Of a DNA stretch of 64,000 nucleotides, positions 23,191-42,128 are shown in pieces; the first letter of the stretch is position 1; the number at the start of each line of letters is the position of its first letter. The stretch is from contig CALLOB010000037.1 of NCBI GenBank assembly GCA_938005315.1, forward strand, positions 5,393 through 69,392, written 5' to 3'. The position numbers and the translations under genes were made by a program. The notes beneath the pieces were generated by a model. The model saw only the letters and a list, made by a program, of their open reading frames with translations. It searched no databases and was not told the DNA's origin. The DNA comes from an uncultured Phycisphaerae bacterium (GTDB taxonomy: Bacteria; Planctomycetota; Phycisphaerae; UBA1845; PWPN01).

Positions 23191-24699
23191 ATGACCGATC
23201 GCGTGCTGATTTCCGAGTTGAAGGACCACGTCGGACAGTCGGTCACGCTGGCCGGCTGGGTCTACAACACGCGGGTCTCCGCCAGGGTGGCCTTTCTGGT
23301 GGTCCGCGACGGCAGCGGGCTGTGTCAGTGCGTCGTGGGCAAGGCCGACGTGCCGGCGGAGGTGTTCGAGGTGGCATCGCACGCCGCGCAGGAATCCTCG
23401 CTGACCATCACCGGCACGGTACACGCCGACGAACGGGCTCCCGGCGGTCACGAATTGCACGTCAGCAGCCTGCAGATCGTGCATCGTGCGGTCGATTACC
23501 CGATCACCCCCAAGGAACACGGCATCGACTTTCTGTTCAGGCACCGTCACCTGTGGCTGCGCTCGCGCCGGCCGACGGCGATCATGAAGGTGCGGCACAC
23601 GGTCATCGATGCGATCCGCCGGTTCTTCAACGATCACGGCTTCCTGCTGGTGGACACGCCGATCTTCGCGCCGTCGGCGGGGGAGGGGGCCCAGACGCTG
23701 TTCGAGGTGGACTACTTCGGCGAGCCGATGTACCTCGCCCAGACCGGGCAGCTCTACCTCGAGGCCGCGGCCATGGCCTACGGCCGGGTGTACTGCTTCG
23801 GACCGACGTTCCGGGCGGAGAAGTCCAAGACCCGCCGCCACCTGACGGAGTTCTGGATGGTCGAGCCGGAGATCGCCTGGGCCCGGCTCGAGGACGTCAT
23901 GAATGTGGCCGAGGATTTCGTCTGCAGCATCGTGGCCCGTTGCCTGAGGGACTGCCGGGCCGAGCTGGAGTTCCTCGGACAGGACATTTCCCGGCTGGAG
24001 CGCATCGTCAGGCCCTTCCACCGCATCACTTACAGCCAGGCGGTGGACATCCTCCACGGCCCGGCGGCGCGGGAGCTGCTCGAACGCGACCTGGCGGAGA
24101 AACAGGCCCGCATCGAGGCCCTCAAGACGTCCATCCCCGCCAAGGAGGCCCAGCGCGACGCTGCCGGCGTCAAGCGGCACGTCCAGGAGAAGCTCGCCGC
24201 CGAGGTCATTGCCGAACGCGAGGAACTGGCCGAGCTGGAGGAGCAGGTCCGCAACATCCCGACGCACATGCAGCTGGCCGCGGACTTCGAGTGGGGCAAG
24301 GATCTCGGCGGCAGCGACGAGACGATCATCTCGCGGCTGCACGACCGGCCGGTGTTCGTCACCCACTACCCGCGCGGCTGCAAGGCCTTCTACATGAAGC
24401 GCGACGAGCAGGATCCGCGCGTGGTCCGCAACTTCGACCTTCTGGCCCCCGACGGCTACGGTGAGATCATCGGCGGCTCGCAGCGCGAGGACGACCTGCA
24501 GGTGCTGCTGGAGCGCATGGCCGAGGAACGGCTCGATCCTGCGCCCTACGAGTGGTACCTGGACCTGCGGCGTTACGGCAGCGTGCCCCACGGCGGCTTC
24601 GGGCTGGGTGTCGAGCGCACCGTCGCCTGGATCTGCGGCCTGCGGCACATCCGCGAAACGATCGCCTATCCGCGGATGATGGGGCGGGTGTACCCGTGA
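23191..24699 (+). CDS. asnS: Asparaginyl-tRNA synthetase (with coiled-coil insertion)
   Basis: OB-fold N-terminus, RHLWLRS, FRAEKSKTRRHLTEFWMVEPE, EIIGGSQRE and RYGSVPHGGFGLGVER motifs. Confidence 0.96.
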   Translation: MTDRVLISELKDHVGQSVTLAGWVYNTRVSARVAFLVVRDGSGLCQCVVGKADVPAEVFEVASHAAQESSLTITGTVHADERAPGGHELHVSSLQIVHRAVDYPITPKEHGIDFLFRHRHLWLRSRRPTAIMKVRHTVIDAIRRFFNDHGFLLVDTPIFAPSAGEGAQTLFEVDYFGEPMYLAQTGQLYLEAAAMAYGRVYCFGPTFRAEKSKTRRHLTEFWMVEPEIAWARLEDVMNVAEDFVCSIVARCLRDCRAELEFLGQDISRLERIVRPFHRITYSQAVDILHGPAARELLERDLAEKQARIEALKTSIPAKEAQRDAAGVKRHVQEKLAAEVIAEREELAELEEQVRNIPTHMQLAADFEWGKDLGGSDETIISRLHDRPVFVTHYPRGCKAFYMKRDEQDPRVVRNFDLLAPDGYGEIIGGSQREDDLQVLLERMAEERLDPAPYEWYLDLRRYGSVPHGGFGLGVERTVAWICGLRHIRETIAYPRMMGRVYP

Positions 24700-27470: not shown

Positions 27471-29798
27471 TCAGCGGCGCCTGCCATGGCGGCGGCGCCT
27501 GCTCGATTGGCTGCGCCCGGCTCTCCGCGTGGTCGAGGCGGGAGGCGGCGTCGGCTCCTCCTCGCAGCGGATTGACGTTGCACGGCTTCGTCGCCCCCCG
27601 CGGTCCGCGCGTTCGCGGGTCGGCCGGGCGGCTCGAGGCTCGCTGTCGACCAGGGCCAGGTCGAGTTCGCGGGCCGACGGATCGACCGAGGCGATTCGCA
27701 CCCGGACGACATCGCCGATCCGGATCCGTCGTCCGGTGCGCTGTCCCTGGGCGGCGCCGGCGGCCGCGTCGATGTCCCACCAGTCGTCGGCCATGTCGGC
27801 GAAACGCACCAGTCCGTCCACCAGGCAGTCGCTCAGCTGCACGAACACGCCGACCTGGGCCACGCCGGTGACCACGCCCTCGGACACCTCACCCAGCCGC
27901 CCAGCCAGGAAACGCAGCACCTTGATCATGCGCAGCTCACGCTCGGCGGCCTCCGCGTGCCGCTCGGTGAAGCTGCAGTGACGGCCGAGCTCGACCAGCT
28001 GCTCCTCGGAGGGAATCGCCAGGCGGTCCTGGCGACTTCGCAAACGCCCTCGCAGGTGCAGGTCCACCAGCCGGTGCACCGTCAGATCGGGATAACGCCG
28101 GATGGGGGAGGTGAAATGAGCGTAGTGGCGACTGGCCAGCGCGAAGTGGCCGGTCAATGCCGGGGAGTATTCCGCTTGTGCCAGTGACCGCAGCACCGCA
28201 AGATTGGCGGCGAAGGACTCCGGGCGGCCGCGCACGGCGTCCAGGATGGCGATGAGTTCGCGGCGGCCGAGCTTCTCGGGCGGCTTGAGCCCCAGCGCCT
28301 GCAGGAAGCGGGCGAGCTTGGCCTGGGCGTCGGCGGGGGGGTCCGGGTGAACCCGCCGCAGGTGGGGGACCTTCAAAGCGGTGAGCGTCTCGGCCACGGC
28401 CTCGTTGGCCTCGACCATGAACATTTCGATGATCGTGTGGGTGAAGCTCCGGTCCGCGGGCCGCACCGCCACCACCTGGTCGTCGTCATCGAAAACCAGG
28501 TCCACCTCCGGCAGGTCCAGCACGATCGCCCCGGCGGCCAGTCGCCGCTGCCGGATCCGGCGGGCCAGGCGGTCCATGCGCCGCAGCAGGGCGGTCACGG
28601 CCGGCGCAGCGCTGTCATCCCGGCCGTCGATGATCGCCTGGGCACCGGTGTAGGTCAGCCGGCGCGCGGAACGGATCACCGTATTGGCCAGGCGGATCCT
28701 GCCCCGACGGCCCTGCCGGTCGTACTGGATGAACACGCTCTTGGTCAGGCGGGGCTCGTCCTCCTGCAGGCTGCACAGGCCGTTGCTCAGCACCTCCGGC
28801 AGCATCGGAATCACGAAGCGCGGCAGGTACACGCTGTTGCCGCGGCGGCGGGCCTCCTCGTCCAGCGGGCTGCCGGGGCGGACGAAATGCGATACATCGG
28901 CGATGTGCACGCCCAGCTCGAGGCTGTCGCCGGTGCCGCGAATGGAAATGGCGTCGTCGAAATCGCGGGCCTCGTCGGGGTCGATGGTGATCACCAGCTC
29001 GTCCCGCAAGTCCTCGCGGACGGCGAGCTCGGATTCCACGTCGTAAGCCGCGACCGCCCGGCGGGCATCCTCCAGCACTTCCGCCGGCATTTCGCGCGGC
29101 AGCTGATACTCATGGATGATGCTCAATGTGTCGATGCCCGGATCGCCCCGACGGCCCAGGACCTCGACGATGACGCCGCGGGCCTCGGCCGAGCGGCCGG
29201 GGTACTCCGTGATCTCGACGACCACCTGGTCGCCCGCCCGGGCCCGGCTGGCCCGGGCGTCGGGAATCCGGATGGGTACATGCAGCGTCCGGCCGTCCGC
29301 TCGCACCAGCCAGTCGCGGCCGACCCGCCGCAGCTCGCCCACGAACCGGCTCTGGCCCCGGGCGACGATTTCGACGATCCGTCCCTCCAGCCGGCCGCCC
29401 GCGAAACCGCGCTCGCCGGACTTGACGATCCGGGCAACGACGGTGTCGCCGGTCACGGCATCGAGGGTCTTGCCCGGCGGAATGAAGAGGTCGCCGCGCT
29501 CGCTGGGGGACTCCGGCACCACGAAGCCGAATCCGCGCTCGTGCCCTCGGAACCGGCCGACCACGCGATCGCCGCCATGGGGCGGCATCACGCAGTTTCC
29601 GCCGCCGAGGATCACGCGGCCGGACCGCATCAGCGACTTGACGGCCTCCCGGAAAGCCGGATACTCGCCCTCGTCGATGCCCATGGACCGGGCCAGCCGC
29701 CTGGGCCGCTGGGGGCGGTAGTCCCGGCCGTGTACATGCGCCAGGATGCGCCCGGATATGTCCCTGTCCTTCTCGCCGCTCGATCCGCGTCTGCCCAT
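27471..29798 (-). CDS. rnr: Ribonuclease R
   Basis: Cold-shock domains (GFGFV), TIDPDEARDFDDA, HIADVS, HFTSPIRRYPD, S1 domain and basic tail. Confidence 0.96.
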   Translation of the reverse strand: MGRRGSSGEKDRDISGRILAHVHGRDYRPQRPRRLARSMGIDEGEYPAFREAVKSLMRSGRVILGGGNCVMPPHGGDRVVGRFRGHERGFGFVVPESPSERGDLFIPPGKTLDAVTGDTVVARIVKSGERGFAGGRLEGRIVEIVARGQSRFVGELRRVGRDWLVRADGRTLHVPIRIPDARASRARAGDQVVVEITEYPGRSAEARGVIVEVLGRRGDPGIDTLSIIHEYQLPREMPAEVLEDARRAVAAYDVESELAVREDLRDELVITIDPDEARDFDDAISIRGTGDSLELGVHIADVSHFVRPGSPLDEEARRRGNSVYLPRFVIPMLPEVLSNGLCSLQEDEPRLTKSVFIQYDRQGRRGRIRLANTVIRSARRLTYTGAQAIIDGRDDSAAPAVTALLRRMDRLARRIRQRRLAAGAIVLDLPEVDLVFDDDDQVVAVRPADRSFTHTIIEMFMVEANEAVAETLTALKVPHLRRVHPDPPADAQAKLARFLQALGLKPPEKLGRRELIAILDAVRGRPESFAANLAVLRSLAQAEYSPALTGHFALASRHYAHFTSPIRRYPDLTVHRLVDLHLRGRLRSRQDRLAIPSEEQLVELGRHCSFTERHAEAAERELRMIKVLRFLAGRLGEVSEGVVTGVAQVGVFVQLSDCLVDGLVRFADMADDWWDIDAAAGAAQGQRTGRRIRIGDVVRVRIASVDPSARELDLALVDSEPRAARPTRERADRGGRRSRATSIRCEEEPTPPPASTTRRAGRSQSSRRRRHGRRR

Positions 29799-30262
29799 CA
29801 GGAATGCTCCATGTCCGCCGGCCCGGCCCTCGGGGATGGTGCGTCGTGAGAAGCCTCGACCACCTGCGGCGTGCATCCGGCGGCTGGTGAGCCGGCCTCC
29901 AGTCGCCGCTCCCGGCCGGACCGACAGCGTACACCATGCCCGGCCGTCCGCTCGGACCCTCCGGGTCGGCCTGAACGGCGATCTCCACCCCCGGTCAACC
30001 CAAGGGTACGCGGGATTTGCGCCGGCCGCAAAGTTGTCGCCGCGCATCAGTGGCAGGATTACCGGACCATCGCCCCGGCAGGGGGCTGTTGCCTTCCGCC
30101 CGACGGGCTCGAGGCCGCCCCTGGGGTTCGCTGCCTCCCGGGACGCCGGGGCTGTCCGGCGGATCCTCCGTGCCGGGTGGACGGACGGACGTGCCGATGA
30201 GGACCGCCTCTCCGGCAAGGCGCCGGCCTGCGAGGAAATCCGACAGCGGCCCGGAGGGCGCC

Positions 30263-30291: not shown

Positions 30292-30374
30292 AGTAATAAC
30301 GTATTGGCGTATTTTTGATCCTGCTCGACCCTCGTGCGAGCGAGAGAAATCGTTTAACCGGTCAGGAGCTGCTC

Positions 30375-31028
30375 ATGCCACGAACGGAAGCCACAACCGA
30401 CCGGGTTGCAGCCCGCCGACGCAGCCGTCGGCCGGGCCGGCCCGGTGCAGTAAAGGAGGCCGATCTCGCCCGGACAGCCTCCCGTTGGCCCGGGGCCGTA
30501 CGCCACGACACGCCGGCCGTTCAACCTCGAAGCCGCAAAGCCGGCCGGACCGCAAAGGTGAACCGCCGGCCCGGCGTCTCCGGCCGCCGGGGCAAGGCCC
30601 GGCGGCGAGCCGTCGATCGCAGCCGCAACAGCCGCCGGGTCCGGATCGCCGTCCGGGTCGATATCCGTCTTTCCGGGACACCGCTTAACGACGCCGTAAC
30701 CGCGACCCTGGAAGGTTCGGGTCGTGGCTTGGAGGCCGCCGCCAAGGCCCTCGTCCGGCGGACGGCGCCCGAACGTCTGGCAACGCTGGTCGCCGGGATG
30801 GCCCACAAGGTCCGGGCAGCCATCCTCATGTACCTGCTGGGCGGGCCGGCCACACACAAGGCCCTGGTGGCTCGAACCGGCTTGGACGGCGGACCGCTTT
30901 ACCATCACCTGCGTGAGCTGAGATCCGCCGGCCTCATCGGCCCCAAGCAGCGGGATGTCTACGACCTGACGCGACAGGGACGCCGGGCCATCCTCACGGG
31001 CCTCGTCCTCGAGAGAACGGTCCGGTAG
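30375..31028 (+). CDS. Winged helix-turn-helix (ArsR-like) regulator with basic N-terminal tail
   Basis: LVAGMAHKVRAAILMYL...GGPLYHHLRELRSAGLI...YDLTRQG. Confidence 0.75.
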   Translation: MPRTEATTDRVAARRRSRRPGRPGAVKEADLARTASRWPGAVRHDTPAVQPRSRKAGRTAKVNRRPGVSGRRGKARRRAVDRSRNSRRVRIAVRVDIRLSGTPLNDAVTATLEGSGRGLEAAAKALVRRTAPERLATLVAGMAHKVRAAILMYLLGGPATHKALVARTGLDGGPLYHHLRELRSAGLIGPKQRDVYDLTRQGRRAILTGLVLERTVR

Positions 31029-31323: not shown

Positions 31324-31713
31324 TCAGACCGCCTGCTTCCGGGAGCCGTCCCTCAACGCCGGTCGCTGCGACAACGTGAAGATCACCAGCTCTTCGCCGG
31401 TGACGGTGCTGATGTCGTGATGCAGGCTCACCATGCTGACGCCCGTGACGTCCTGAACCAGCTTCTCGAGCACCGGCCTGGCCGTCTCGATGAGCTGGAT
31501 TCGCACCTGTTTGAGCAGATCCCGGCCTCTTTCCGGCGAGAGAGACTTCACGAGTTGCTGCTCGGCGGCGGTCAGCACGCCCTGCAGACGGATAACCAGC
31601 AGATCGCCGATCAGGTGGGCGTGAATCCCGGTCGGTCCGCGACCCATGTACTCCTGTTCAAAACGGGTCATTCCTTCGCAAATGGCGGCCTCGATCTGTC
31701 CCTGGGTGTTCAT
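31324..31713 (-). CDS. DUF2294 (MpsC-like) protein
   Basis: FEQEYMGRGP, LQGVLTAAEQQL, GRDLLKQVR and SLHHDISTVTGEELVIFTL motifs. Confidence 0.88.
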   Translation of the reverse strand: MNTQGQIEAAICEGMTRFEQEYMGRGPTGIHAHLIGDLLVIRLQGVLTAAEQQLVKSLSPERGRDLLKQVRIQLIETARPVLEKLVQDVTGVSMVSLHHDISTVTGEELVIFTLSQRPALRDGSRKQAV

Positions 31714-31786
31714 GGCGTTTTCAGTCCTGCAGGCCCGGCCGGAGTCGCCCCGATCCGATGGTGCGTGCACGTCTCATCCGGCCGAT

Positions 31787-31815
31787 TTGCAGTCGGAGCG
31801 CGACGCGGCTATTAT
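31787..31815 (+). promoter_or_regulatory. Putative sigma-70 promoter of the structured leader
   Basis: TTGCAG-N17-TATTAT, with an overlapping TATAAT. Confidence 0.5.
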
Positions 31816-31821
31816 AATGCA

Positions 31822-31940
31822 CGCCGGACAACAGAGCCGAATGGCCAATGCCTGACGGTGGTGGTTGTTCCGGCGGTCGGATGACTAGCCGAAGGGCAAA
31901 CCCGGCATCGCCGGGTGGGCCCGTTGAATAGTATGCCGGC
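31822..31940 (+). ncRNA. Candidate cis-regulatory leader RNA (riboswitch/attenuator)
   Basis: Stem CGCCGGACAAC/GTTGTTCCGGCG, then CCGGCAT(31902-08)/ATGCCGG(31933-39) competing with CCCGGC-ATC-GCCGGG and with the terminator arm. Confidence 0.6.
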
Positions 31941-31981
31941 GCGGCTGAACACCCCAGGGTGCGCGGCCTCGTCGGTTTTTT
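31936..31981 (+). terminator. Intrinsic terminator (expression platform of the leader)
   Basis: CCGGCG.../...CGTCGG stem with inner CACC/GGTG pairing, followed by TTTTTT. Confidence 0.65.
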
Positions 31982-32172
31982 GTTGGCCTCAGAGGGTTCT
32001 CCGGTCGCCTTCCGGCAGCCGGGGCGAGGCCGCGGGTCGTTTACGGCAGCGCGCCGGACCCGTTCGAAATCAGAGGCGCCCGCTGGAGCCCTGCGGTGCG
32101 GCGTGCGGCCAATACTCGTCATTGAGGACCGGCCGCCGGTTTTCCAGAAGGCACGGCATTGGAGGAACGGAA

Positions 32173-32451
32173 ATGCTTACTGTCACACCGGGCGCCGGCG
32201 TGCGCCTGCTGCGCCGGCTGAGGCGCAAGGATGTCGCCGAGGACATGGCGATGAGGTTCACGCGAGGCGCGGCGGCCTGGAAGCTGCGACTGGATCACAT
32301 GCGCCCCTCCGACACCGTCATTGTTCACCAGGGAAGGACGGTCCTGCTTCTTGACGAGGCCGTCGCCCGGGAGATGACCAACATGACGCTGGGCGTCAGG
32401 AAGACCGAAGCCGGGCCTCGATTCGCGCTGGCCGGCGGGCATGTCGTCTGA
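32173..32451 (+). CDS. Small HesB/IscA-like fold protein lacking cysteines
   Basis: GGAGG RBS. MLTVT..A start and D.VIVHQGRTVLLLD....M..MTL pattern typical of HesB-like proteins. No Cys. Confidence 0.6.
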   Translation: MLTVTPGAGVRLLRRLRRKDVAEDMAMRFTRGAAAWKLRLDHMRPSDTVIVHQGRTVLLLDEAVAREMTNMTLGVRKTEAGPRFALAGGHVV

Positions 32452-32486: not shown

Positions 32487-32801
32487 ATGGCACGCAGAAA
32501 CCGTCCGACACAGGTCAAGCGAGAGCGCGAGCAGCAGAAGCGCGACCGTCAGCGGAAGAAGGCCGAGAAGGCCGCAGCCAAACGCCAACGACGGGCGACC
32601 GCCCGCGGCACCGGTGCCGGGACCCTCGATGAGAATGCCCCGAGGTTTGCCGGCCTGCCGGAAGGTGAACCATCCGGGCTGCAGACGCTCCCTTCGGACA
32701 CTCGGACGCCCGAGCCGGGGCTCAGTCGCCGGGAACCCGGTGAGCCCGGCCGCGAGCATGGAGGCGCAACGCATGGAACTGCCCCGCCGCAGGCCGGATG
32801 A
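32487..32801 (+). CDS. Small basic (Arg/Lys-rich) hypothetical protein
   Basis: GGGGAG RBS. MARRNRPTQVKREREQQKRDRQRKKAEKAAAKRQRR charged helix. Confidence 0.55.
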   Translation: MARRNRPTQVKREREQQKRDRQRKKAEKAAAKRQRRATARGTGAGTLDENAPRFAGLPEGEPSGLQTLPSDTRTPEPGLSRREPGEPGREHGGATHGTAPPQAG

Positions 32802-34680
32802 CGCCTGCCTTCCCGACGGCTCGATGCGGGACGCGATCGCCCGCCTGCAGGGCAGCGGCCTGGTCCGCCACGTGCGCGTCGGCATCGTGTACGCCTTCGA
32901 CTTCCGCACCCGGATGCTGCCCTACTGGTACACCGACAAGCGCATGGCTCCCTGTTCGGTTCGTACCCTCGGCGATGTACTGGATGCCGCGGGTTTCAGG
33001 CACGTGCGGATCGTCCTGCAGCAGTGGAACCCGCGTTTCCGTCCCAGTGCCGCACGTCTGGACGGCAGGCCCCTGGACCTTCTGCTGGTGTCGGCGATGC
33101 AGGTCCACGCCGAGCCGGCCTACGACCTGATCCGCGACGCCCACCGCCTCGGCGATGCCCGGCCGCTCATCCTGGCGGGCGGCCCCAAGGCCGCCTATGA
33201 GCCCACGGATATGCTGGAGATCGGCCCGGAGCCCGGCGTCGGCGCCGACTGCGTCGTCACCGGCGAGGCCTTCGTCCTCCTGGATCTCCTGCTGGCAATG
33301 GTCCAGGTCCGAAAGCACGACGAACCCATCCGCCGGACCTTCGACCGCGCCGCACGCACGAACGCTCTGCACCGGATCCCCGGACTCGTCTATCTCGATC
33401 CTCATCGCCAGGCCGGACCGCCGCTGGCCGTTCACACCGGCGTTCAGCGGCTGCTGAGGGATCTGGACGAGTTGCCGGTGCCCGACGCCGGCTTCCGGAT
33501 GCTCGAGCCCCCCCACCGGGGTCCGGGTTTGCGGCCCCGGCCGCTGGATCCGCGCAAGGTGGCCTCGCACTCGCCCATGGCCTCGATCGTCTCCACCCAG
33601 GGCTGCCGGTTCAACTGCTCCTTCTGCGGCATCCCCGCCCTGAACCAGCGCACCTGGCGGCACAAGAGCGCCCGGCGGCTGACCGACGAGATCCGGCACC
33701 TGCACGAAACCTTCGGCATCAAGGTGTTTTTCGGCACCGACGACAACTTCTTCAACAACCGCGAAACGCTCCTGAGCATGATCACCACCCTGGCCGCGGA
33801 ACGCACCCGCGGCGTTCCCCTGGGCGAGGTCGTCCATATTTACACCGAAGCCACGCAATCGGACGTCTACCGACACCGCGATCTTCTGCCGCTGTGCCGC
33901 CGCGCCGGCCTGCGCGGCATCTGGTTCGGCATCGAGGACATCACCGCCGAGCTGGTCAACAAGGGACAGTGCGCCGGCAACACCGCCGAGCTGTTCGCGA
34001 TGCTGAGGAAGCTCGGCATCGAGCCGATGGCCATGCTGATCCACAGCGATCGCCAGCCGCTCCGCAGTAGGGGCGACGACCTGTCCGGGCTGCTGAATCA
34101 GGCCGACTATCTTTTCCGGCACGGCGCCGTCTCGTATCAGTGCACATACCTGGGCCCGGCCGTCGGCACGCGCGATTTCGAGCCGGCCGCCGAGTCGGGG
34201 GCGATCTTCCGTGCGGTCGGCGGCAGGCCGGTCCCCGAGGCCTTCTACGACGGCAACCACGTCAGTGCGTCGATGCATCCCGAGCCCTGGAAGCGGCAGC
34301 TGAATATCCTGCGGGCCTACGCCCGTTTCTACAACCCGTTGAACACCGTCCGGGCGATGTTCTGTTTCCGCAACGATGCCGTCTCGGCCAAGCGGCTGAT
34401 CTTCCAGATCGCCGGCCAGATCGGCCTGCTGATGACCCTGCCCAAGCTGATCGGCTGGGCCTGGCGCCTGAAGCGGGGACCGATCGAGCCCTGGAACGGT
34501 GTGCAGCCGGCGAGAATCCCGATCGTGGATGCCGCCAGCGGCGAGGAGATCCAGTGGGCCATCCGCCGGCCGCCGAGTCTGCATACCGTCTCACGGCCGC
34601 CGGCATCGGATCGCACCGGCAGCCGTCGGCATCCGCGGGGCGTCCCGGATGTCCGTTCAGCGACCGTCGGCGGTTTGTGA
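32758..34680 (+). CDS. B12-binding-domain radical SAM protein
   Basis: GCRFNCSFC cluster motif and DDNF. N-terminal ILAGGP...VVTGEA cobalamin-binding-like region. Confidence 0.88.
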   Translation: MEAQRMELPRRRPDDACLPDGSMRDAIARLQGSGLVRHVRVGIVYAFDFRTRMLPYWYTDKRMAPCSVRTLGDVLDAAGFRHVRIVLQQWNPRFRPSAARLDGRPLDLLLVSAMQVHAEPAYDLIRDAHRLGDARPLILAGGPKAAYEPTDMLEIGPEPGVGADCVVTGEAFVLLDLLLAMVQVRKHDEPIRRTFDRAARTNALHRIPGLVYLDPHRQAGPPLAVHTGVQRLLRDLDELPVPDAGFRMLEPPHRGPGLRPRPLDPRKVASHSPMASIVSTQGCRFNCSFCGIPALNQRTWRHKSARRLTDEIRHLHETFGIKVFFGTDDNFFNNRETLLSMITTLAAERTRGVPLGEVVHIYTEATQSDVYRHRDLLPLCRRAGLRGIWFGIEDITAELVNKGQCAGNTAELFAMLRKLGIEPMAMLIHSDRQPLRSRGDDLSGLLNQADYLFRHGAVSYQCTYLGPAVGTRDFEPAAESGAIFRAVGGRPVPEAFYDGNHVSASMHPEPWKRQLNILRAYARFYNPLNTVRAMFCFRNDAVSAKRLIFQIAGQIGLLMTLPKLIGWAWRLKRGPIEPWNGVQPARIPIVDAASGEEIQWAIRRPPSLHTVSRPPASDRTGSRRHPRGVPDVRSATVGGL

Positions 34681-35955
34681 GCCGCGGGCCGAACCGCCGG
34701 ACACCACCAGCACGGCGATGTGGCCGCCGAATCCCATGGAAATCTTGAGGACGGCGCCGGGCTCCAGTTCGACCTGATCCCGCGGCCAGTACAACGGCGG
34801 CAGCCGGGGATCGGGCTCCAGCAGTGTGCTCAGCCCGGGTTGCCGGCCTTGCGCGACCGACAGGCATGCAATCGCCGTTTCCACCGCCCCGGCCGCTCCC
34901 AGGAGATGCCCGATGGCCCCCTTGATCGACAGAACCGGGACTCGTGTGGTCTGAGACCCCAGCAGTGCGGCGATGGCCAGCGCCTCGTATGCGTCATTGG
35001 ACCGCGTGCCCGTGCCGTGGGCGTGAATCGCCCGAATATCGCACGGATCGACTGAGGCCCGTCGGCAGGCGGTCCGAAAGGCGTATTCCAGCGACGCGGC
35101 GTCGGCCGACGTGGCCGTGAGCCCGGCCGGATCCGTGGCACAGGCCCAGCCCGAAATCTCGGCCAGGATCGGTGCACCCCGGGCAGCGGCCCCCCGCCGC
35201 GTTTCCAGTACCAGAATCGCAGCCCCCTCGCCGGGAACGAAACCCTCCCGCGTCGCATCGAACGGTCGGCAGGCCCAGGCAGCCCCCAGCTCCGGATGAG
35301 GCCCGGCCAGAACGCCCATCCGATCGAAAGCCGCCAGCCAGAGCGGCGCCAGCGAGGCATCGCTGCCGCCGCACAGTACCCGGTCCGCGCGGCCCTCGAC
35401 GATGAGCTGCGCCCCGCGAATGATCGACGACGTGCCGGTCGCACATGCGGCCACATCGGCCAGGGCGCCGCCCTGCAGACCGTATCGCTCGGCCACCGCG
35501 CGGGCCGGCCCGTCCGGCGGAATGTCCGGCAGCAGGACAGCCAGGTCGGCCGGCAGACCTGGCCTCCGTGGACCGCTCCGTCGAGCCGAGGTCCGCCGCA
35601 TGGCCTGCAGCGCGGCCGAAAGCGTCAGGATGCCGCCCTTGCTCGTACCCACACAGGCCGCGACGCGATCGGGGGACAGATTCCCGACCGGATCGGTCCC
35701 CAGGCCCGCCTGCAACACCGCCTCCTCGGCGGCGGCGACGGCCAACCGGCAGACCCGATCCCGCCGGGTCATGCCCGTCGGAGGCCGGTGTTCCGGCACG
35801 ACCGCGCCGATCCAGCGATGCCGCCCCGGAGCGGCTTGCCGCTCCAGCGGCCCGACCGTCCGCACGCCGTCCAGCAGGGCTCTCCAGGACTGCATGGCCC
35901 CGACACCCGCGGGCGAGACGATTCCGACGCCGGTGACCACGACACCTTCGGACAT
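34657..35955 (-). CDS. Beta-ketoacyl-ACP synthase (FabF-like)
   Basis: VVVTGVG, AACATG (Cys), HAHGTGT, KGAIGHLLGA and GFGG motifs. Confidence 0.9.
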   Translation of the reverse strand: MSEGVVVTGVGIVSPAGVGAMQSWRALLDGVRTVGPLERQAAPGRHRWIGAVVPEHRPPTGMTRRDRVCRLAVAAAEEAVLQAGLGTDPVGNLSPDRVAACVGTSKGGILTLSAALQAMRRTSARRSGPRRPGLPADLAVLLPDIPPDGPARAVAERYGLQGGALADVAACATGTSSIIRGAQLIVEGRADRVLCGGSDASLAPLWLAAFDRMGVLAGPHPELGAAWACRPFDATREGFVPGEGAAILVLETRRGAAARGAPILAEISGWACATDPAGLTATSADAASLEYAFRTACRRASVDPCDIRAIHAHGTGTRSNDAYEALAIAALLGSQTTRVPVLSIKGAIGHLLGAAGAVETAIACLSVAQGRQPGLSTLLEPDPRLPPLYWPRDQVELEPGAVLKISMGFGGHIAVLVVSGGSARGSQTADGR

Positions 35956-35988
35956 GGATGATCGATTCGTGCAGGCTGCCGCCGAGCT

Positions 35989-37059
35989 TCAAGCGGGCAA
36001 ATTGTGACCGGGGCACGGACACGCCGGCGATGCGGCGGCGACCTGCAGGCGTTGACCCGCCTCGCACGACGATCCCACCGGCCGAGCCAGCGTCAGCCCC
36101 AGTTGCTGTACCATCCGGCGGTCCTCTTCCGGCGATCGCCCGAGTGTGGTGAGGTAGTTGCCGATCAGAAAGCTGTCGGCCCCCGCCAGAAAGATCCAGC
36201 TCTGCAGGTCCCCCAGGCACGCTTCCCGCCCCCCCGCCACCTTGATCTCCCGGTCCGGCAGGATCAGCCGCGCCAGGGCGATGATCCGCAGACATTCCAT
36301 CGCCGGCAGGCGCGGCCGGTGCTCCAGCGGCGTTCCGGCGATGGGTATCAGGAAATTCAGCGGCACAATGTCGGGCGCCAGATCGCGGAGTTCAAAGAGC
36401 AGGTCGAACCGGTCCGCCCACGTCTCGCCCATGCCGAACAGCGCCCCGCTGCAGACCATCATGCCGGCCTGCCGGACGTGCCGCAGCGTCGCCAGCCGGT
36501 CGTCGTAGCTGTGGGTGGTCACGATGCGCGGAAAGAATCGCCGCGAGGTCTGCAGGTTGTGGTTGTAGCAGGCAGTACCCCAGTCGGCCAGGCGTCGGGC
36601 CTGATCCGCGTCCAGGCAGCCCAGGGAGGCACAGGCCCGCATTGTGCCGCGATCGCGTATCGCCCGTATCACCGCCCCCCACCGGTCGATGTCCCCATCG
36701 TCCGGGGCGTATCCGCTGTTGACGACACCGAACGCCTCAGCCCCGTTGGCCGCTGCGGCCTGCGCGGCCTGGAGGACCTGCTCTGGCGGGAGTTCGGCGG
36801 GCTGGCAGACCGGTGTCCGGTAGTGCCCCGACTGGCTGCAGAACGCGCAGTCCTCCCCGCAAGCTCCGATCTTGGCGGCCACGATGCTGCAGCAACGGAC
36901 CACCCGGCCGCGGTGATGCTCCCGGATACGGCTGGCGGCCGCGAAGAGATCCGGCAGCAGATCGGCCGGAAGCTCCGCCAGGGACTCGGCCTCGCGGCGA
37001 TGCAGGGGGCGGCCCCGCAGGATCCGCTCGGCGCAGGCGTGTATATCGTCGCGATTCAT
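35989..37059 (-). CDS. bioB: Biotin synthase
   Basis: GACGEDCAFCSQS, CASLG, YNHNL, VCSG and PLNFL...GTPL motifs. Confidence 0.95.
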   Translation of the reverse strand: MNRDDIHACAERILRGRPLHRREAESLAELPADLLPDLFAAASRIREHHRGRVVRCCSIVAAKIGACGEDCAFCSQSGHYRTPVCQPAELPPEQVLQAAQAAAANGAEAFGVVNSGYAPDDGDIDRWGAVIRAIRDRGTMRACASLGCLDADQARRLADWGTACYNHNLQTSRRFFPRIVTTHSYDDRLATLRHVRQAGMMVCSGALFGMGETWADRFDLLFELRDLAPDIVPLNFLIPIAGTPLEHRPRLPAMECLRIIALARLILPDREIKVAGGREACLGDLQSWIFLAGADSFLIGNYLTTLGRSPEEDRRMVQQLGLTLARPVGSSCEAGQRLQVAAASPACPCPGHNLPA

Positions 37060-37085
37060 CAGTCCAGAGGTCCTGTCCGGCAGGT

Positions 37086-37403
37086 TTATTTCGAACGGCG
37101 GGGAGGTTCGCCGGGCATGCGCTGCAGCGGGGTCAGATCGATCTGCTGAATCAGCTCGACCTGGCCGACGGCGGTGTTGAACCCGTACACGTTCATGCGC
37201 TGCAGCGCCGCATCGACGACCACGACCAGCTCGGCCGCGGCGTTGAGGTTGCACGTCGTGACGATGAAATCGCCGGAGTTGGCGGTCTGCCCGGCAGCCA
37301 GTGCAGGCGCCGGCCCCATGGCCTGCAGAAGCACCACGCCGGTCAGCAGAATCGTGGCCGTGATGCTCAACGTCGCGATCGCCAGGTCCTTGCCCGTCAT
37401 CAT
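37086..37403 (-). CDS. Small membrane-anchored hypothetical protein
   Basis: N-terminal TM helix, then PALA...GDFIV...LVVVVD...QRMNVY. Paralog-like to the next gene. Confidence 0.65.
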   Translation of the reverse strand: MMTGKDLAIATLSITATILLTGVVLLQAMGPAPALAAGQTANSGDFIVTTCNLNAAAELVVVVDAALQRMNVYGFNTAVGQVELIQQIDLTPLQRMPGEPPRRSK

Positions 37404-37448
37404 CGGTCGTCCTCGCGGCCGGACGGCGCGGTCCGGCCCTCATCACGG

Positions 37449-37736
37449 TCAGCGACGGAAGTCCCGGGCCAGGTCGCGCGAACCGACCAGCCCGATGGCC
37501 GTAGGCTCGACCCCCGGCATCGTGGTGCGGAACGTGTGCATCTGCATGGTCCGCAGGTCCACAAGATACAAAGCGTCGTTGTTCATCTCCGCCTCGGCAG
37601 CCACCAGGATGAACTCTCCGCTGCGGCCGATGCCCTGGGCTATCGCGGCCGGCGGGGAGTACGCGCCCAGCACCAGAATGGCAGCCAGCGCCGCGTTCAG
37701 AACCAGCAGCAGGGTAATCACCGCGCCCTTGTTCAT
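37449..37736 (-). CDS. Small membrane-anchored hypothetical protein
   Basis: MNKGAVITLLLVLNAAL TM, then AIAQ...GEFIL...LYLVDLRTMQM...RDLARDF. Confidence 0.65.
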   Translation of the reverse strand: MNKGAVITLLLVLNAALAAILVLGAYSPPAAIAQGIGRSGEFILVAAEAEMNNDALYLVDLRTMQMHTFRTTMPGVEPTAIGLVGSRDLARDFRR

Positions 37737-37783
37737 CCCCGTGTTCCTCATGAGCCGGGCCGGCGGCGGAGGCACGCACCCGA

Positions 37784-39294: not shown

Positions 39295-39370
39295 TCGGGG
39301 CGACTGGATTTGAACCAGCGACCTCTTGACCCCCAGTCAAGCGCTCTAGGCCAGGCTGAGCTACGCCCCG
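39295..39370 (-). tRNA. tRNA-Pro(GGG)
   Basis: CGGGGCGTAGCTCAG...CTTGA-CTGGGGG-TCAAG...GGTTCAAATCC...CGCCCCGA. CCA not encoded. Confidence 0.96.
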
Positions 39371-39921
39371 CAGGCATACCGGGTCGCGGGAAGCAAGGCG
39401 ATCCGCCGCGGGGCCCGGCCGCCTAGTCAACGGGCCCGCCGGCGGGAGAGGCCGACGACTCGGTACACCGGCTTTGGAGGAATGATAACCGAAGCCCGGC
39501 CGTTGTCCAAACGTCGGCATGGTTGTCGATCCGCGCCGGGCCGGGGGAATGCAGGGCATGGGGGATCGCTCGAAAAGGCGTATGAGGAGGCCGGGCCGCC
39601 GGTCGTCCTGTTCGAGGGCCGAATGCCCGAACGGTTGCCGGGGGACTGCGGCACGGGCCTGTCGGACCGACCGGCATCAGGCTCGATCCGCGCCGCCGGC
39701 ATCAGGGCCGCCGTACGCCCGACAAGGGAGATCCTGGCCGCCATGCGGGCCACGGCGAGCGCCCGGGGGGACGGGCGCCGGGGGGAGGCTTGTCGGGAAA
39801 GGCTCGGGAACCCGTCATTCTAACTGTTCGAGCGGTGCCGTATGCCGCGTTCGGTGCCTGCGGGGCCCGCCCGGCCGCCACCGGATGAGCTTCGGCGTCT
39901 TTGCCGGGACGCCTGGTGCTG

Positions 39922-39950
39922 TTGACATCCGCGGCGCAGGGCCTTCTAAT
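39922..39950 (+). promoter_or_regulatory. Sigma-70 promoter of tRNA-Leu
   Basis: TTGACA-N17-TCTAAT. Confidence 0.65.
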
Positions 39951-39981
39951 AGCGGCAGCTCAGCCGGGCATCCGGCTCGGC

Positions 39982-40066
39982 GCGGATGTGGCGGAATTGG
40001 CAGACGCGCAAGGTTCAGGTCCTTGTGGCCCACAAGGCCGTGGAGGTTCGACTCCTCTCATCCGCA
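39982..40066 (+). tRNA. tRNA-Leu(CAG)
   Basis: GCGGATGTGGCGGAATTGGCAGACGCG, anticodon arm CAAGG-TTCAGGT-CCTTG, long variable arm, GGTTCGACTCC. Confidence 0.96.
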
Positions 40067-40258
40067 ATCGTTCGGCCCCCAGTCCGCACCGCGCCAGGCA
40101 CAACCGAACACAAGGTTATTTATGATGGGCAGTCAGGAACGTCCCTGGCTGCCTTTTCCGTTGCGCGTGGCGGTCTGCGGCCGCCGAAAGGCGATGCCCG
40201 GCCCGTCATGTCCATCCCCTCCGCCGGAGGCGGTGACCGCTGTGCCGTCGGTGCGGCG

Positions 40259-41518
40259 CTACCGCGTGCCGTTGAACTCCCGCACCGCGTCGATCATCGC
40301 GACGATGTTGGCCAACGGGGTTCGGGCCTGCACGTTGTGAATCGCGTTGAAGACGAAGCCGCCGCCGGGGGCGAAGACCTCGCACCGCCGCAACACCTGC
40401 TCTCGGACCTCCTCCGGCGTACCGAAAGGCAGCGTTTTCTGCGTGTCGACGCCGCCGCCCCAGAAGACGATCCGCTCGCCGTACCGTTTCTTGAGAAGCA
40501 CCGGATCCATACCCGCCGCGGAGCACTGCACCGGGTTGAGCACATCGAAGCCGGACTCGATGAACAGCGGGATGAACTTCTCCACCGCGCCGCACGAGTG
40601 CTTCATGCTCTTCCATCGCGTGTGGGCGTGGATCCAGCCGTTGATGCGCCTGTAGTACGGCATGTACAGCTCACGGAACGCGTCCGTCGAGCAGAACGAC
40701 GACGTCTGGGTGCCGAAATCCGTGCCGCAGACGAAAACGGCGTCGACGTTGTCGCCCACCGCCCGGTGGATCGCCTCCAGATTGGCCAGTCCGATCTCGC
40801 ACTGCCGCTGGAAGACGTGGTGAACGTAGTCGCGACGGCTGACCGTGGACATGTACCACTCGGCGATGTCGCGGATACCCCGGGGATGCTTCAGAAACGG
40901 CGCCGGCACCAGGGCGATGTCGCCGAAGGCCGTGCCGCCGAACGTGGCCGCCACGCCCAGTCCGGTGGCCGCGGCCCGGGCGGTTTCCCGGCGGAAATGC
41001 TCCAGCACGTCAGGGCCCAGCGGCTGAAACTCCTCGCAGTTGTCGGCCGGATCGAGCCGGTCCTCGTCGATCGGCTCCTGGCGCACGATGGCATCGAAAT
41101 AGAATCCACCTTTAGGCAGTCGGCCGCTGGGCGGCACGGAGGTGTCTCCCTGGGGGTGGATGTAGGTATTGCCCTCGGCGTCGACCGTGGTGTTGAAGTC
41201 GCCGCCGACCAGCACCTCCAGGCCGTCCGGAGTCCGCCAGGGCTTCCAGTTGTCGTTGAGCGTGCCGAACAGGGTTCGCGGGCCGGTCACGCCGATGACG
41301 TCCACGCCCATCGCCCTGATGAGGTCCTCCTCGATCAGCCCGAGCATCTGAAAAGGCTCGTGCATCTTCACCGGCCGCTTTTCCAGCCCGTAGTATTCGC
41401 GCAACGCGGCCACACAGGTGACATGCATGCCCGAGCACGGCGTGCCGCCGAAATCGACGGGCACGGCGTCGGGCTGTCGGTGGGCCAGTGATGTCTGCAG
41501 ACGTTCCCGGCTGGTCAT
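40259..41518 (-). CDS. Uroporphyrinogen decarboxylase-family / MtaA-like protein
   Basis: MTSRER...PDAVPVDFGG, DFGTQ, HSCG, LNPVQ, FWGGGVDTQ and GGFVFNAIHN motifs. Confidence 0.9.
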   Translation of the reverse strand: MTSRERLQTSLAHRQPDAVPVDFGGTPCSGMHVTCVAALREYYGLEKRPVKMHEPFQMLGLIEEDLIRAMGVDVIGVTGPRTLFGTLNDNWKPWRTPDGLEVLVGGDFNTTVDAEGNTYIHPQGDTSVPPSGRLPKGGFYFDAIVRQEPIDEDRLDPADNCEEFQPLGPDVLEHFRRETARAAATGLGVAATFGGTAFGDIALVPAPFLKHPRGIRDIAEWYMSTVSRRDYVHHVFQRQCEIGLANLEAIHRAVGDNVDAVFVCGTDFGTQTSSFCSTDAFRELYMPYYRRINGWIHAHTRWKSMKHSCGAVEKFIPLFIESGFDVLNPVQCSAAGMDPVLLKKRYGERIVFWGGGVDTQKTLPFGTPEEVREQVLRRCEVFAPGGGFVFNAIHNVQARTPLANIVAMIDAVREFNGTR

Positions 41519-42054
41519 GACACACCTCGCATTCCGGATGAGCTGCGGTCGCGCACATGGTATCCGACGGTTTTCTTCAAGGCCACCGTTCGCGGCGTCG
41601 GAAAGCCAGCGGGAAGCGATGCTGGATGTCCGCGGCGTTCCTTGCCTCCGTGCGCCGCCCCCGTGCCTACGGGGCGGCGGAGCCCGAGGACGGTTGCCCT
41701 TGTCGGAGATCACGCGGCCGGCTCCGCCGCGAGAATGCGATGGATCATGGCCGTAGCGGGGGGACCGGTCGAGGTGGGAGGCCGTCCGGTCGGCGGCAGG
41801 GCCGGTGTCGAGACCTCCCCTCGCTCCCGCCGGGAGCAGAAATGGCTCTGGCGGGCGCTCACGTCCTGGAGGGACGCGCAATGCGACGGGGCGAGCCCGG
41901 TAAGGCCCCGCTCTGTCGGGACCGTAGAACCGAACGCGACGGCACAGGCCGCTTTGGGGCCGAGGGGCTGATTACCAGCCGGCGATCTGCAACGGATTGA
42001 AAACCGGCCCAGCTGAAGCCGCCGTAAGTTTTTATAGTAATCAGTTACAATCAC

Positions 42055-42128
42055 AGGCGGCGATGGGATTCGAACCCATGAATAACGGATTTGCAATCCG
42101 TCCCCTTGGTCCACTTGGGTACGCCGCC
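42055..42128 (-). tRNA. tRNA-Cys(GCA)
   Basis: GGCGGCGTACCCAAGTGG...ACGGA-TTGCAAA-TCCGT...GGTTCGAATCC...CGCCGCCT. Confidence 0.96.

Follow-up and report, generated by a model that had tools for sequence, protein, structure and literature searches.

ANTAR response regulators (AmiR, NasR, EutV) read two small hairpins. Extracts of PMC5393181 describe RAT as a hairpin of 29–33 nt which overlaps the 5′ arm of a terminator by 6–10 nt, and extracts of PMC9337991 present the Na+-I riboswitch as an ON switch with stems P1 and P2 and a conserved loop, the last stem competing with a terminator. In planctomycetes, Rhodopirellula-1, a motif absent from Rfam, was proposed as a multi-copy hairpin with a possible cis-regulatory role, according to excerpts of Weinberg et al. 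(2010, PMC2864571).

MpsC of the staphylococcal mpsABC and YbcI of B. subtilis are of the same family (PF10057) as the MpsC protein encoded in the window analysed here, i.e. a 64,000-nt stretch of DNA from an uncultured Phycisphaerae bacterium. Genes for PF10057 proteins follow dabAB on a Staphylococcus plasmid and precede sbtA in Anoxybacillus. In the literature covered, with most subscription papers outside its scope, no regulatory or RNA-binding role was found for MpsC, and the leader RNA next to its gene was undescribed, although an unnamed listing in later motif surveys is possible. This RNA is almost certainly a terminator/antiterminator leader.

Genomic context of the leader

The mpsC gene is transcribed away from the leader, and plus-strand genes lie on the other side (Table 1). 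The MpsC gene is single-copy in the assembly of the window (G000), which carries one element and one mpsC. For the first downstream gene, an Atlas lead pointed to PF01521, assigned to 10% of one cluster (score 0.88), and homologues of this HesB-like ORF were present behind the element in five relatives. The main target of regulation is likely the radical SAM gene, which in G001, G006, G008, G021 and G047 comes after the HesB-like gene. The order mpsC-A, element, mpsC-B, HesB-like gene and radical SAM gene was found in G006, G008 and G047; G000, G001 and G021 had no intact mpsC-B, the window representing a reduced module.

The predicted promoter was recovered as one sigma70-like match at 31786–31815, against 0.2 expected in shuffles; a similar pattern preceded 45 of the 109 homologues and was absent from all 69 control windows. 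We infer transcription from this promoter, as well as the termination, the binding and the signal discussed below.

On the other flank, an ArsR-type helix-turn-helix gene (30315–31028) converges on mpsC and is kept in the same-genus relative. Further neighbours (23191–24699, 27471–30218, 34657–37779, 39295–42128) are ordinary: an asparaginyl-tRNA-synthetase-like ORF (by eye), RNase R, ketoacyl synthase and a biotin-synthase-like ORF (by eye), together with three tRNAs.

Table 1. Features of the leader and adjoining genes (window positions), and receiver-MpsC fusion frames (positions within their own loci).
Feature	Position	Strand	Evidence or remark
mpsC/DUF2294/ybcI gene, 129 aa, subfamily A (label of this analysis)	31324..31713	-	PF10057, E 8e-35
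sigma70-like promoter, TTTGCA/TTGCAG then TATTAT overlapping TATAAT	31786..31818	+	putative function
5′ hairpin (domain 1)	31822..31875	+	predicted stable, z -2.97
conserved antiterminator hairpin P1–P4	31876..31940	+	best nascent fold and consensus of 112 homologues
intrinsic-terminator-like hairpin (31935–31976) and T6 (31976–81)	31935..31981	+	folding; overlap kept in homologues
first gene downstream, 92 aa, weakly HesB/IscA-like	32173..32451	+	Pfam: 0 families
small basic ORF, 104 aa	32487..32801	+	0 Pfam families; homologue only in same-genus relative
B12-binding radical SAM gene	32773..34680	+	PF04055 and PF02310; probable start, from homologue (ORF opens at 32614)
receiver-MpsC fusion frames	L229:449-1198, L237:1087-1836, L398:1501-2253		

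Alternative folds of the leader

The sequence strings named in the original prediction were all in place, i.e. the arms of domain 1 (31822–32 and 31864–75), Fold A (31901–15), the arms of Fold B (31902–08 and 31933–39), TTGAATAGT (31924–32) and the T6 run. The conserved part of the leader, 31876–31981, comprises one long, interrupted and unbranched hairpin and an overlapping terminator. In this hairpin, P1 (31876–80/31936–40) is followed by a 3x3 internal loop and the predicted P2 (31884–86/31930–32), above which are predicted an irregular middle part, P3 (approximately 31894–97/31918–21) and P4 at the tip. The 3′ strand of P1 is at the same time the 5′ arm of the terminator, an overlap of the RAT type (31935/36–31940) that was found in 107 of 110 homologues.

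The predicted T6 terminator agrees with the folding, its hairpin reaching -29.1 kcal/mol (z -3.5); a simple terminator scan found none at the leader, probably because the stem is interrupted. Folding of 31876–31985 gave a z of -4.4 with 0 of 200 shuffles as good, which together with the conservation in other genomes places the leader far beyond chance.

With the transcript cut at 31945, the most stable fold was domain 1 followed by P1–P4, with a P1 probability of 0.9996. After the addition of 31964–76, the terminator was better by 4.4 kcal/mol in the full leader and the P1 probability was 0.001; the terminator wins by taking the 3′ strand of P1, and the default state is therefore predicted to be OFF. 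Among homologues, P1 was present in 109 of 110 nascent folds, and in 107 of 110 full folds the CC of P1 went to the terminator, with a median gap of 7.5 kcal/mol. According to these models, the switch would be turned ON by stabilising P1.

Mutually exclusive stems with ON logic had been predicted, and this stood for an antiterminator competing with a terminator, but not for the stems that had been named. Fold B, put forward as the antiterminator, lies 16.6 kcal/mol above the best fold with a pair probability of about 1e-10, and only 5 of 110 homologues could form a 7-pair helix from these arms. Fold A, supposed to be its alternative, is P4 and is present in both predicted states. Domain 1, rejected both as a conserved domain and as a part of the switch, likewise forms in both predicted states (pair probability >0.999 in all four transcript lengths) and turned out to be a variable 5′ hairpin: among 109 upstream regions it aligns only to that of the same-genus relative, and notably good folding was seen in only 28% of these regions.

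Conservation and covariation

In a DNA search of 60 relatives, strong matches started at query position 97 (window 31876) and stopped at the T run, and upstream of 31876 only the same-genus genome matched. The strong element was present in 21 of 61 genomes, and in a phylum-wide sample the element was present in 8 of 151 genomes, three of these being weak. The distribution is patchy, with seven copies within 19.5 kb in one genome. With model R1, the element of the window scored 69.2 bits and was the only strong match in G000.

A pattern scan of the genome collection returned at least 131 stretches; three short words were set by the pattern itself, which accounts for part of the invariance in the corresponding columns. 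In total, a script collected 143 candidates from all loci; after removal of 28 without the 3′ motif and 3 that were duplicated or truncated, 112 homologues, nearly all planctomycete, were aligned. Their consensus is a single unbranched hairpin of four stems, without junction or pseudoknot. In the 20-pair structure, 97.2% of the cells pair (25–48% in slid controls) and eight pairs change on both sides. Covariation was concentrated in the upper stems P3 and P4; P1 and P2 show almost no variation within type I, and consequently rest on energy and on the distant variants. The internal loops and G-U pairs are nearly invariant in type I.

Metagenome scanning with a loose pattern gave mostly chance matches, with true copies in 3 of 100 loci scanned (120 fetched), and no type I RNA copies were found on plasmids. 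Copies L100, L105, L114, L052 and L066 are from records titled Bacillota, Gammaproteobacteria, Alcaligenaceae, delta proteobacterium and Victivallales, and may be mis-binned contigs or transfers.

Comparison with known RNA elements

Three tRNAs were the only Rfam 15 matches in the window; no other family reached its gathering cut-off in the window, in 10 homologue loci or in 7 variant loci, where nothing relevant appeared, and around the leader there was nothing of note at E≤10. The leader is thus unannotated, as predicted, and belongs to no known Rfam family. Likenesses to the c-di-GMP, TPP, glnA, glycine and SAM riboswitches gained no Rfam support and were rejected. The loose resemblance to the DUF1646/Na+ riboswitch did not survive comparison: the Na+-I model RF03071 had no match at the locus at E≤10 (best 14 bits elsewhere in G000, cut-off 40.5) nor in 10 canonical homologues, and the short GUUGAA..AUGCC likeness noted earlier reads GUUGAC..AAGCC in the homologues. 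The Na+-I riboswitch is an ON switch with a final stem set against a terminator (extracts of PMC9337991), as is predicted for the leader, whereas the riboswitch as outlined there has two stems and a conserved loop, and the leader one long hairpin.

Rhodopirellula-1 and the leader are both multi-copy planctomycete hairpins. Identity of the two was rejected since the consensus differs: by eye, about 67 of 153 published rows (PMC2864571) have AAC..GUU around a long variable loop, and are without GGAUGAC, AGUAAGCC and the overlapping terminator.

By analogy, the leader would work like a RAT/BglG system without being a member, as its hairpin is longer and no CAT protein was found. Like RAT with BglG, SacY and LicT in the extracts of PMC5393181, it has a single hairpin with conserved internal loops and a 3′ end common to the terminator 5′ arm, a default OFF state (predicted here), and a regulator gene (a candidate one here) adjoining the target. 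It differs in length (47–65 nt, against 29–33 nt in RAT) and in loop sequence; the targets are stress or carbon genes instead of the sugar genes of RAT, and the candidate protein is MpsC, unrelated to BglG. The CAT domain had 0 matches in G000 (90% complete), with a positive control in 4 of 14. The receiver-MpsC fusions recall ANTAR proteins in having an output domain behind a receiver, near terminator leaders, but one unbranched hairpin stands here in place of the two small ones. The ANTAR-domain search gave 0 matches in G000, and its control also matched nowhere.

Association with MpsC and downstream genes

The proposed link with DUF2294 was borne out. Among 61 genomes, 18 had both the strong element and MpsC, 3 had the element without MpsC, 5 had MpsC without the element, and 35 had neither, so that MpsC was present in 18 of 21 relatives with the strong element and in 5 of 40 others; the Fisher p of 2e-8 is overstated, as kin are not independent, and the table becomes 18/5/5/33 when two weak matches are counted. 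An mpsC gene was within 1.5 kb in 25 of 54 loci chosen by the RNA pattern alone, against 0 of 18 chance-match loci. At 35 of 61 elements there was no mpsC within 450 nt, and these would need MpsC in trans. The mpsC-A gene lies upstream of or divergent from the element, and therefore is not under its control.

Profile searches found no MpsC in the element-bearing genomes G025 (90% complete), G117 (89%), G039 (99%; 44.9-bit element with a poor U tract) and G003 (99%; 35 bits), and G031 had only a C-terminal mpsC remnant beside the element. The mpsC loci L393, L386, L381, L216 and L218 were without a visible element. MpsC was not found in 251 genomes from each of two other phyla, and viral contigs contained no relative of it. 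The two might also be linked because they were transferred together in one island, or because a ligand-sensing RNA has mpsC among its targets.

Of 58 downstream ORFs hand-picked from an automatic list, mpsC-B was the commonest first gene (8/58). Others encoded CsbD, YflT, transglycosylase-associated proteins, DUF3309, DUF1328, DUF5670, Hsp20, GroEL, fasciclin, PRC-barrel and ice-binding proteins, glycosyltransferases, sigma factors, KaiC, CsrA and two-component proteins, which we take to be a general-stress set of the planctomycete elements. The genes share no single metabolite theme, and Pfam identified 0 Na+ transporters among the 58, MpsC carrying a Na+ label only through its Pfam name. Behind variant leaders, 5 of 11 ORFs were of PEP carboxykinase type.

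The alignment-based model of MpsC had a pLDDT of 95.7. Neither fold searches with the two MpsC models nor sequence searches of the PDB revealed a clear solved relative, the best fold match having Z 6.2 and rmsd 3.2 over 91 residues, and no known RNA-binding fold was clearly matched; the fold thus neither supports nor weakens RNA binding. Conservation reaches at least 90% in 91 MpsC sequences at R42, K68 and R71, all three of which are missing from MpsC-B, as are R25 and R64. All three long frames tested, in three genomes, were receiver-MpsC fusions with MpsC in the output position (Table 1), an arrangement that identifies MpsC as an output domain in signalling; MpsC had no ANTAR-domain match. 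In G053, an element was located about 1 kb from a receiver-MpsC fusion.

Variant hairpins in other lineages

Four of the five MpsC-only relatives carry subfamily A′, and the fifth (G054) a fragment at a contig edge. In three of these relatives (G022, G028, G036), a variant hairpin with an overlapping terminator follows directly after an mpsC of another subfamily, and a related hairpin with an overlapping terminator is also found after mpsC in G221, G246 and G287. In plasmid-collection records, the source of the Firmicutes evidence, the core and an overlapping terminator are located after DUF2294 in Anoxybacillus, before the bicarbonate transporter gene sbtA, and in Acetoanaerobium, before an MFS transporter gene; with R1, the Acetoanaerobium copy ranked best in its 12-kb locus, weakly (E 0.019). 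The shared-core descriptor was written after these cases and is hence not blind, its background in G000 being one chance locus.

Model R2, built on 6 variant copies, matched in 4 of 61 and 4 of 121 genomes, with 6 of the matches being training sequences. Of its two blind matches, both in MpsC genomes, one is directly after the 3′ end of mpsC and the other before PEP carboxykinase; no match was obtained in 38 and 111 MpsC-negative genomes. As distant variants were mis-registered by MAFFT, variant pairs were counted by anchored position. The hairpin is 65 nt long in the window and 47–55 nt in the variants, and only about nine basal bases are kept across the lineages. The RNA type changes with the MpsC subfamily, the second pair of P2 turning from C-G to U-A.

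Proposed mechanism and alternatives

The leader is probably a transcription attenuator held open by the MpsC encoded back to back with it, i.e. a case of protein-dependent antitermination. RNA transcribed as far as 31945 would fold into P1–P4, and the addition of 31964–76 would let the terminator take the 3′ strand of P1 and set the switch OFF. MpsC-A would bind the basal stem and the 3x3 internal loop (core GG-NNG-A with U-ANG-CC), and by stabilising P1 would allow the polymerase to read into the HesB-like and radical SAM genes. More tentatively, an upstream signal may set the activity of MpsC, possibly by phosphorylation in the receiver-MpsC fusions, and MpsC-B, which is without the conserved basic residues and itself stands behind the element, might provide feedback. 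CO2/bicarbonate as the signal for copies before PEP carboxykinase and SbtA is a guess. One RNA core before unrelated gene sets (stress and carbon) would fit a protein reader better than a single ligand. Against MpsC as the reader, the protein is not net basic (14 K+R, 15 D+E), and the high conservation of the type I hairpin extends over about 65 nt, twice as long as RAT, as would be expected of an aptamer.

In an orphan riboswitch, a small molecule or ion (bicarbonate, a monovalent cation or a signalling nucleotide) would stabilise P1, and mpsC would merely be regulated or co-inherited. The ON layout shared with the Na+-I riboswitch as outlined in PMC9337991, the near-invariant loops and G-U pairs of type I, and the frequency of mpsC-B as the first downstream gene all suit this explanation, which is nevertheless unlikely: so few basal bases persist across lineages, the consensus has no junction or pseudoknot, the RNA type follows the protein subfamily, mpsC-A is outside the control of the element, and no metabolite unites the downstream genes. 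Still less probable is that another protein, temperature or polymerase kinetics reads the attenuator, with mpsC as passenger of a mobile stress island. The patchy, clustered distribution and the few element-bearing genomes without MpsC would be expected of a passenger, but element and mpsC are repeatedly found together, in two phyla and among unrelated genes, and G000 had no detectable CAT domain of the BglG type.

Binding of CsrA to the GGA in the 5′ strand of P1, opening P1 and favouring termination, is very improbable. Most type I copies have GGA (170 of 185 descriptor matches, some of which are mis-registered duplicates), which in the antiterminator fold is paired in P1. A homologue of csrA is present in G000, and in several islands a csrA gene is found downstream of mpsC-B. 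In the variants, however, GGA is replaced by GGC or GGU and the switch is kept; moreover, the terminator is predicted to win without any protein, hence a repressor is unneeded, and the conserved 3′ strand and the mpsC link would be left unexplained. GC-rich DNA folds easily, but the conservation in 21 of 61 genomes, the covarying stems, the fixed terminator overlap and the upstream promoter reduce the probability of a chance fold or a plain constitutive terminator almost to nil.

With MpsC as the preferred reader, we lean slightly towards a wider reading, in which MpsC/DUF2294/YbcI would form an unrecognised RNA-binding antitermination family with a cognate hairpin, extending from planctomycetes as far as Firmicutes, in which hairpin variants changed along with the protein subfamilies. 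It would run a planctomycete general-stress regulon, and elsewhere inorganic-carbon genes (SbtA, PEP carboxykinase, perhaps DabAB/MpsAB), and would act on RNA as a two-component output. If so, the orphan DUF2294/MpsC/YbcI, found with bicarbonate pumps of staphylococci and bacilli, gains a function, the short list of RNA-binding antiterminators a new family, and a planctomycete general-stress regulon would be controlled at the level of termination. Should MpsC fail as the reader, the RNA is still a well-supported orphan riboswitch candidate.

Other leaders and gene arrangements near mpsC

Variant leaders often consist of two tandem hairpin-terminator units, downstream or upstream of mpsC (L219, L397, L212, L215, L387, L388; by eye). 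In L397:589-2424, a B-like MpsC is fused in frame to PEP carboxykinase. In L211 (G042:C46), upstream of mpsC and a DUF4914 gene, there is a different terminator-overlapping hairpin, which neither R1 nor R2 matched. In L218 (G048:C79), mpsC-A seems by eye to follow a tmRNA-like sequence, the tmRNA gene being a common insertion site.

Upstream of the Anoxybacillus DUF2294 gene (L401:7800-8000) there is a second long structured leader with a terminator and no Rfam match. On a Staphylococcus pettenkoferi plasmid (L402:3180-8354), dabB-dabA-hypothetical-DUF2294 is located between two IS6 copies, with a terminator just before dabB; in this dabAB leader, the hairpin upstream of the terminator is by eye of other sequence. 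In Bacillus badius and Priestia megaterium records (L407:3400-3995 and L408:3580-3960), a distant DUF2294 subfamily precedes fdhD. The opposite strand there has, by eye, a terminator-overlapping hairpin of another sequence, in Priestia upstream of formate dehydrogenase.
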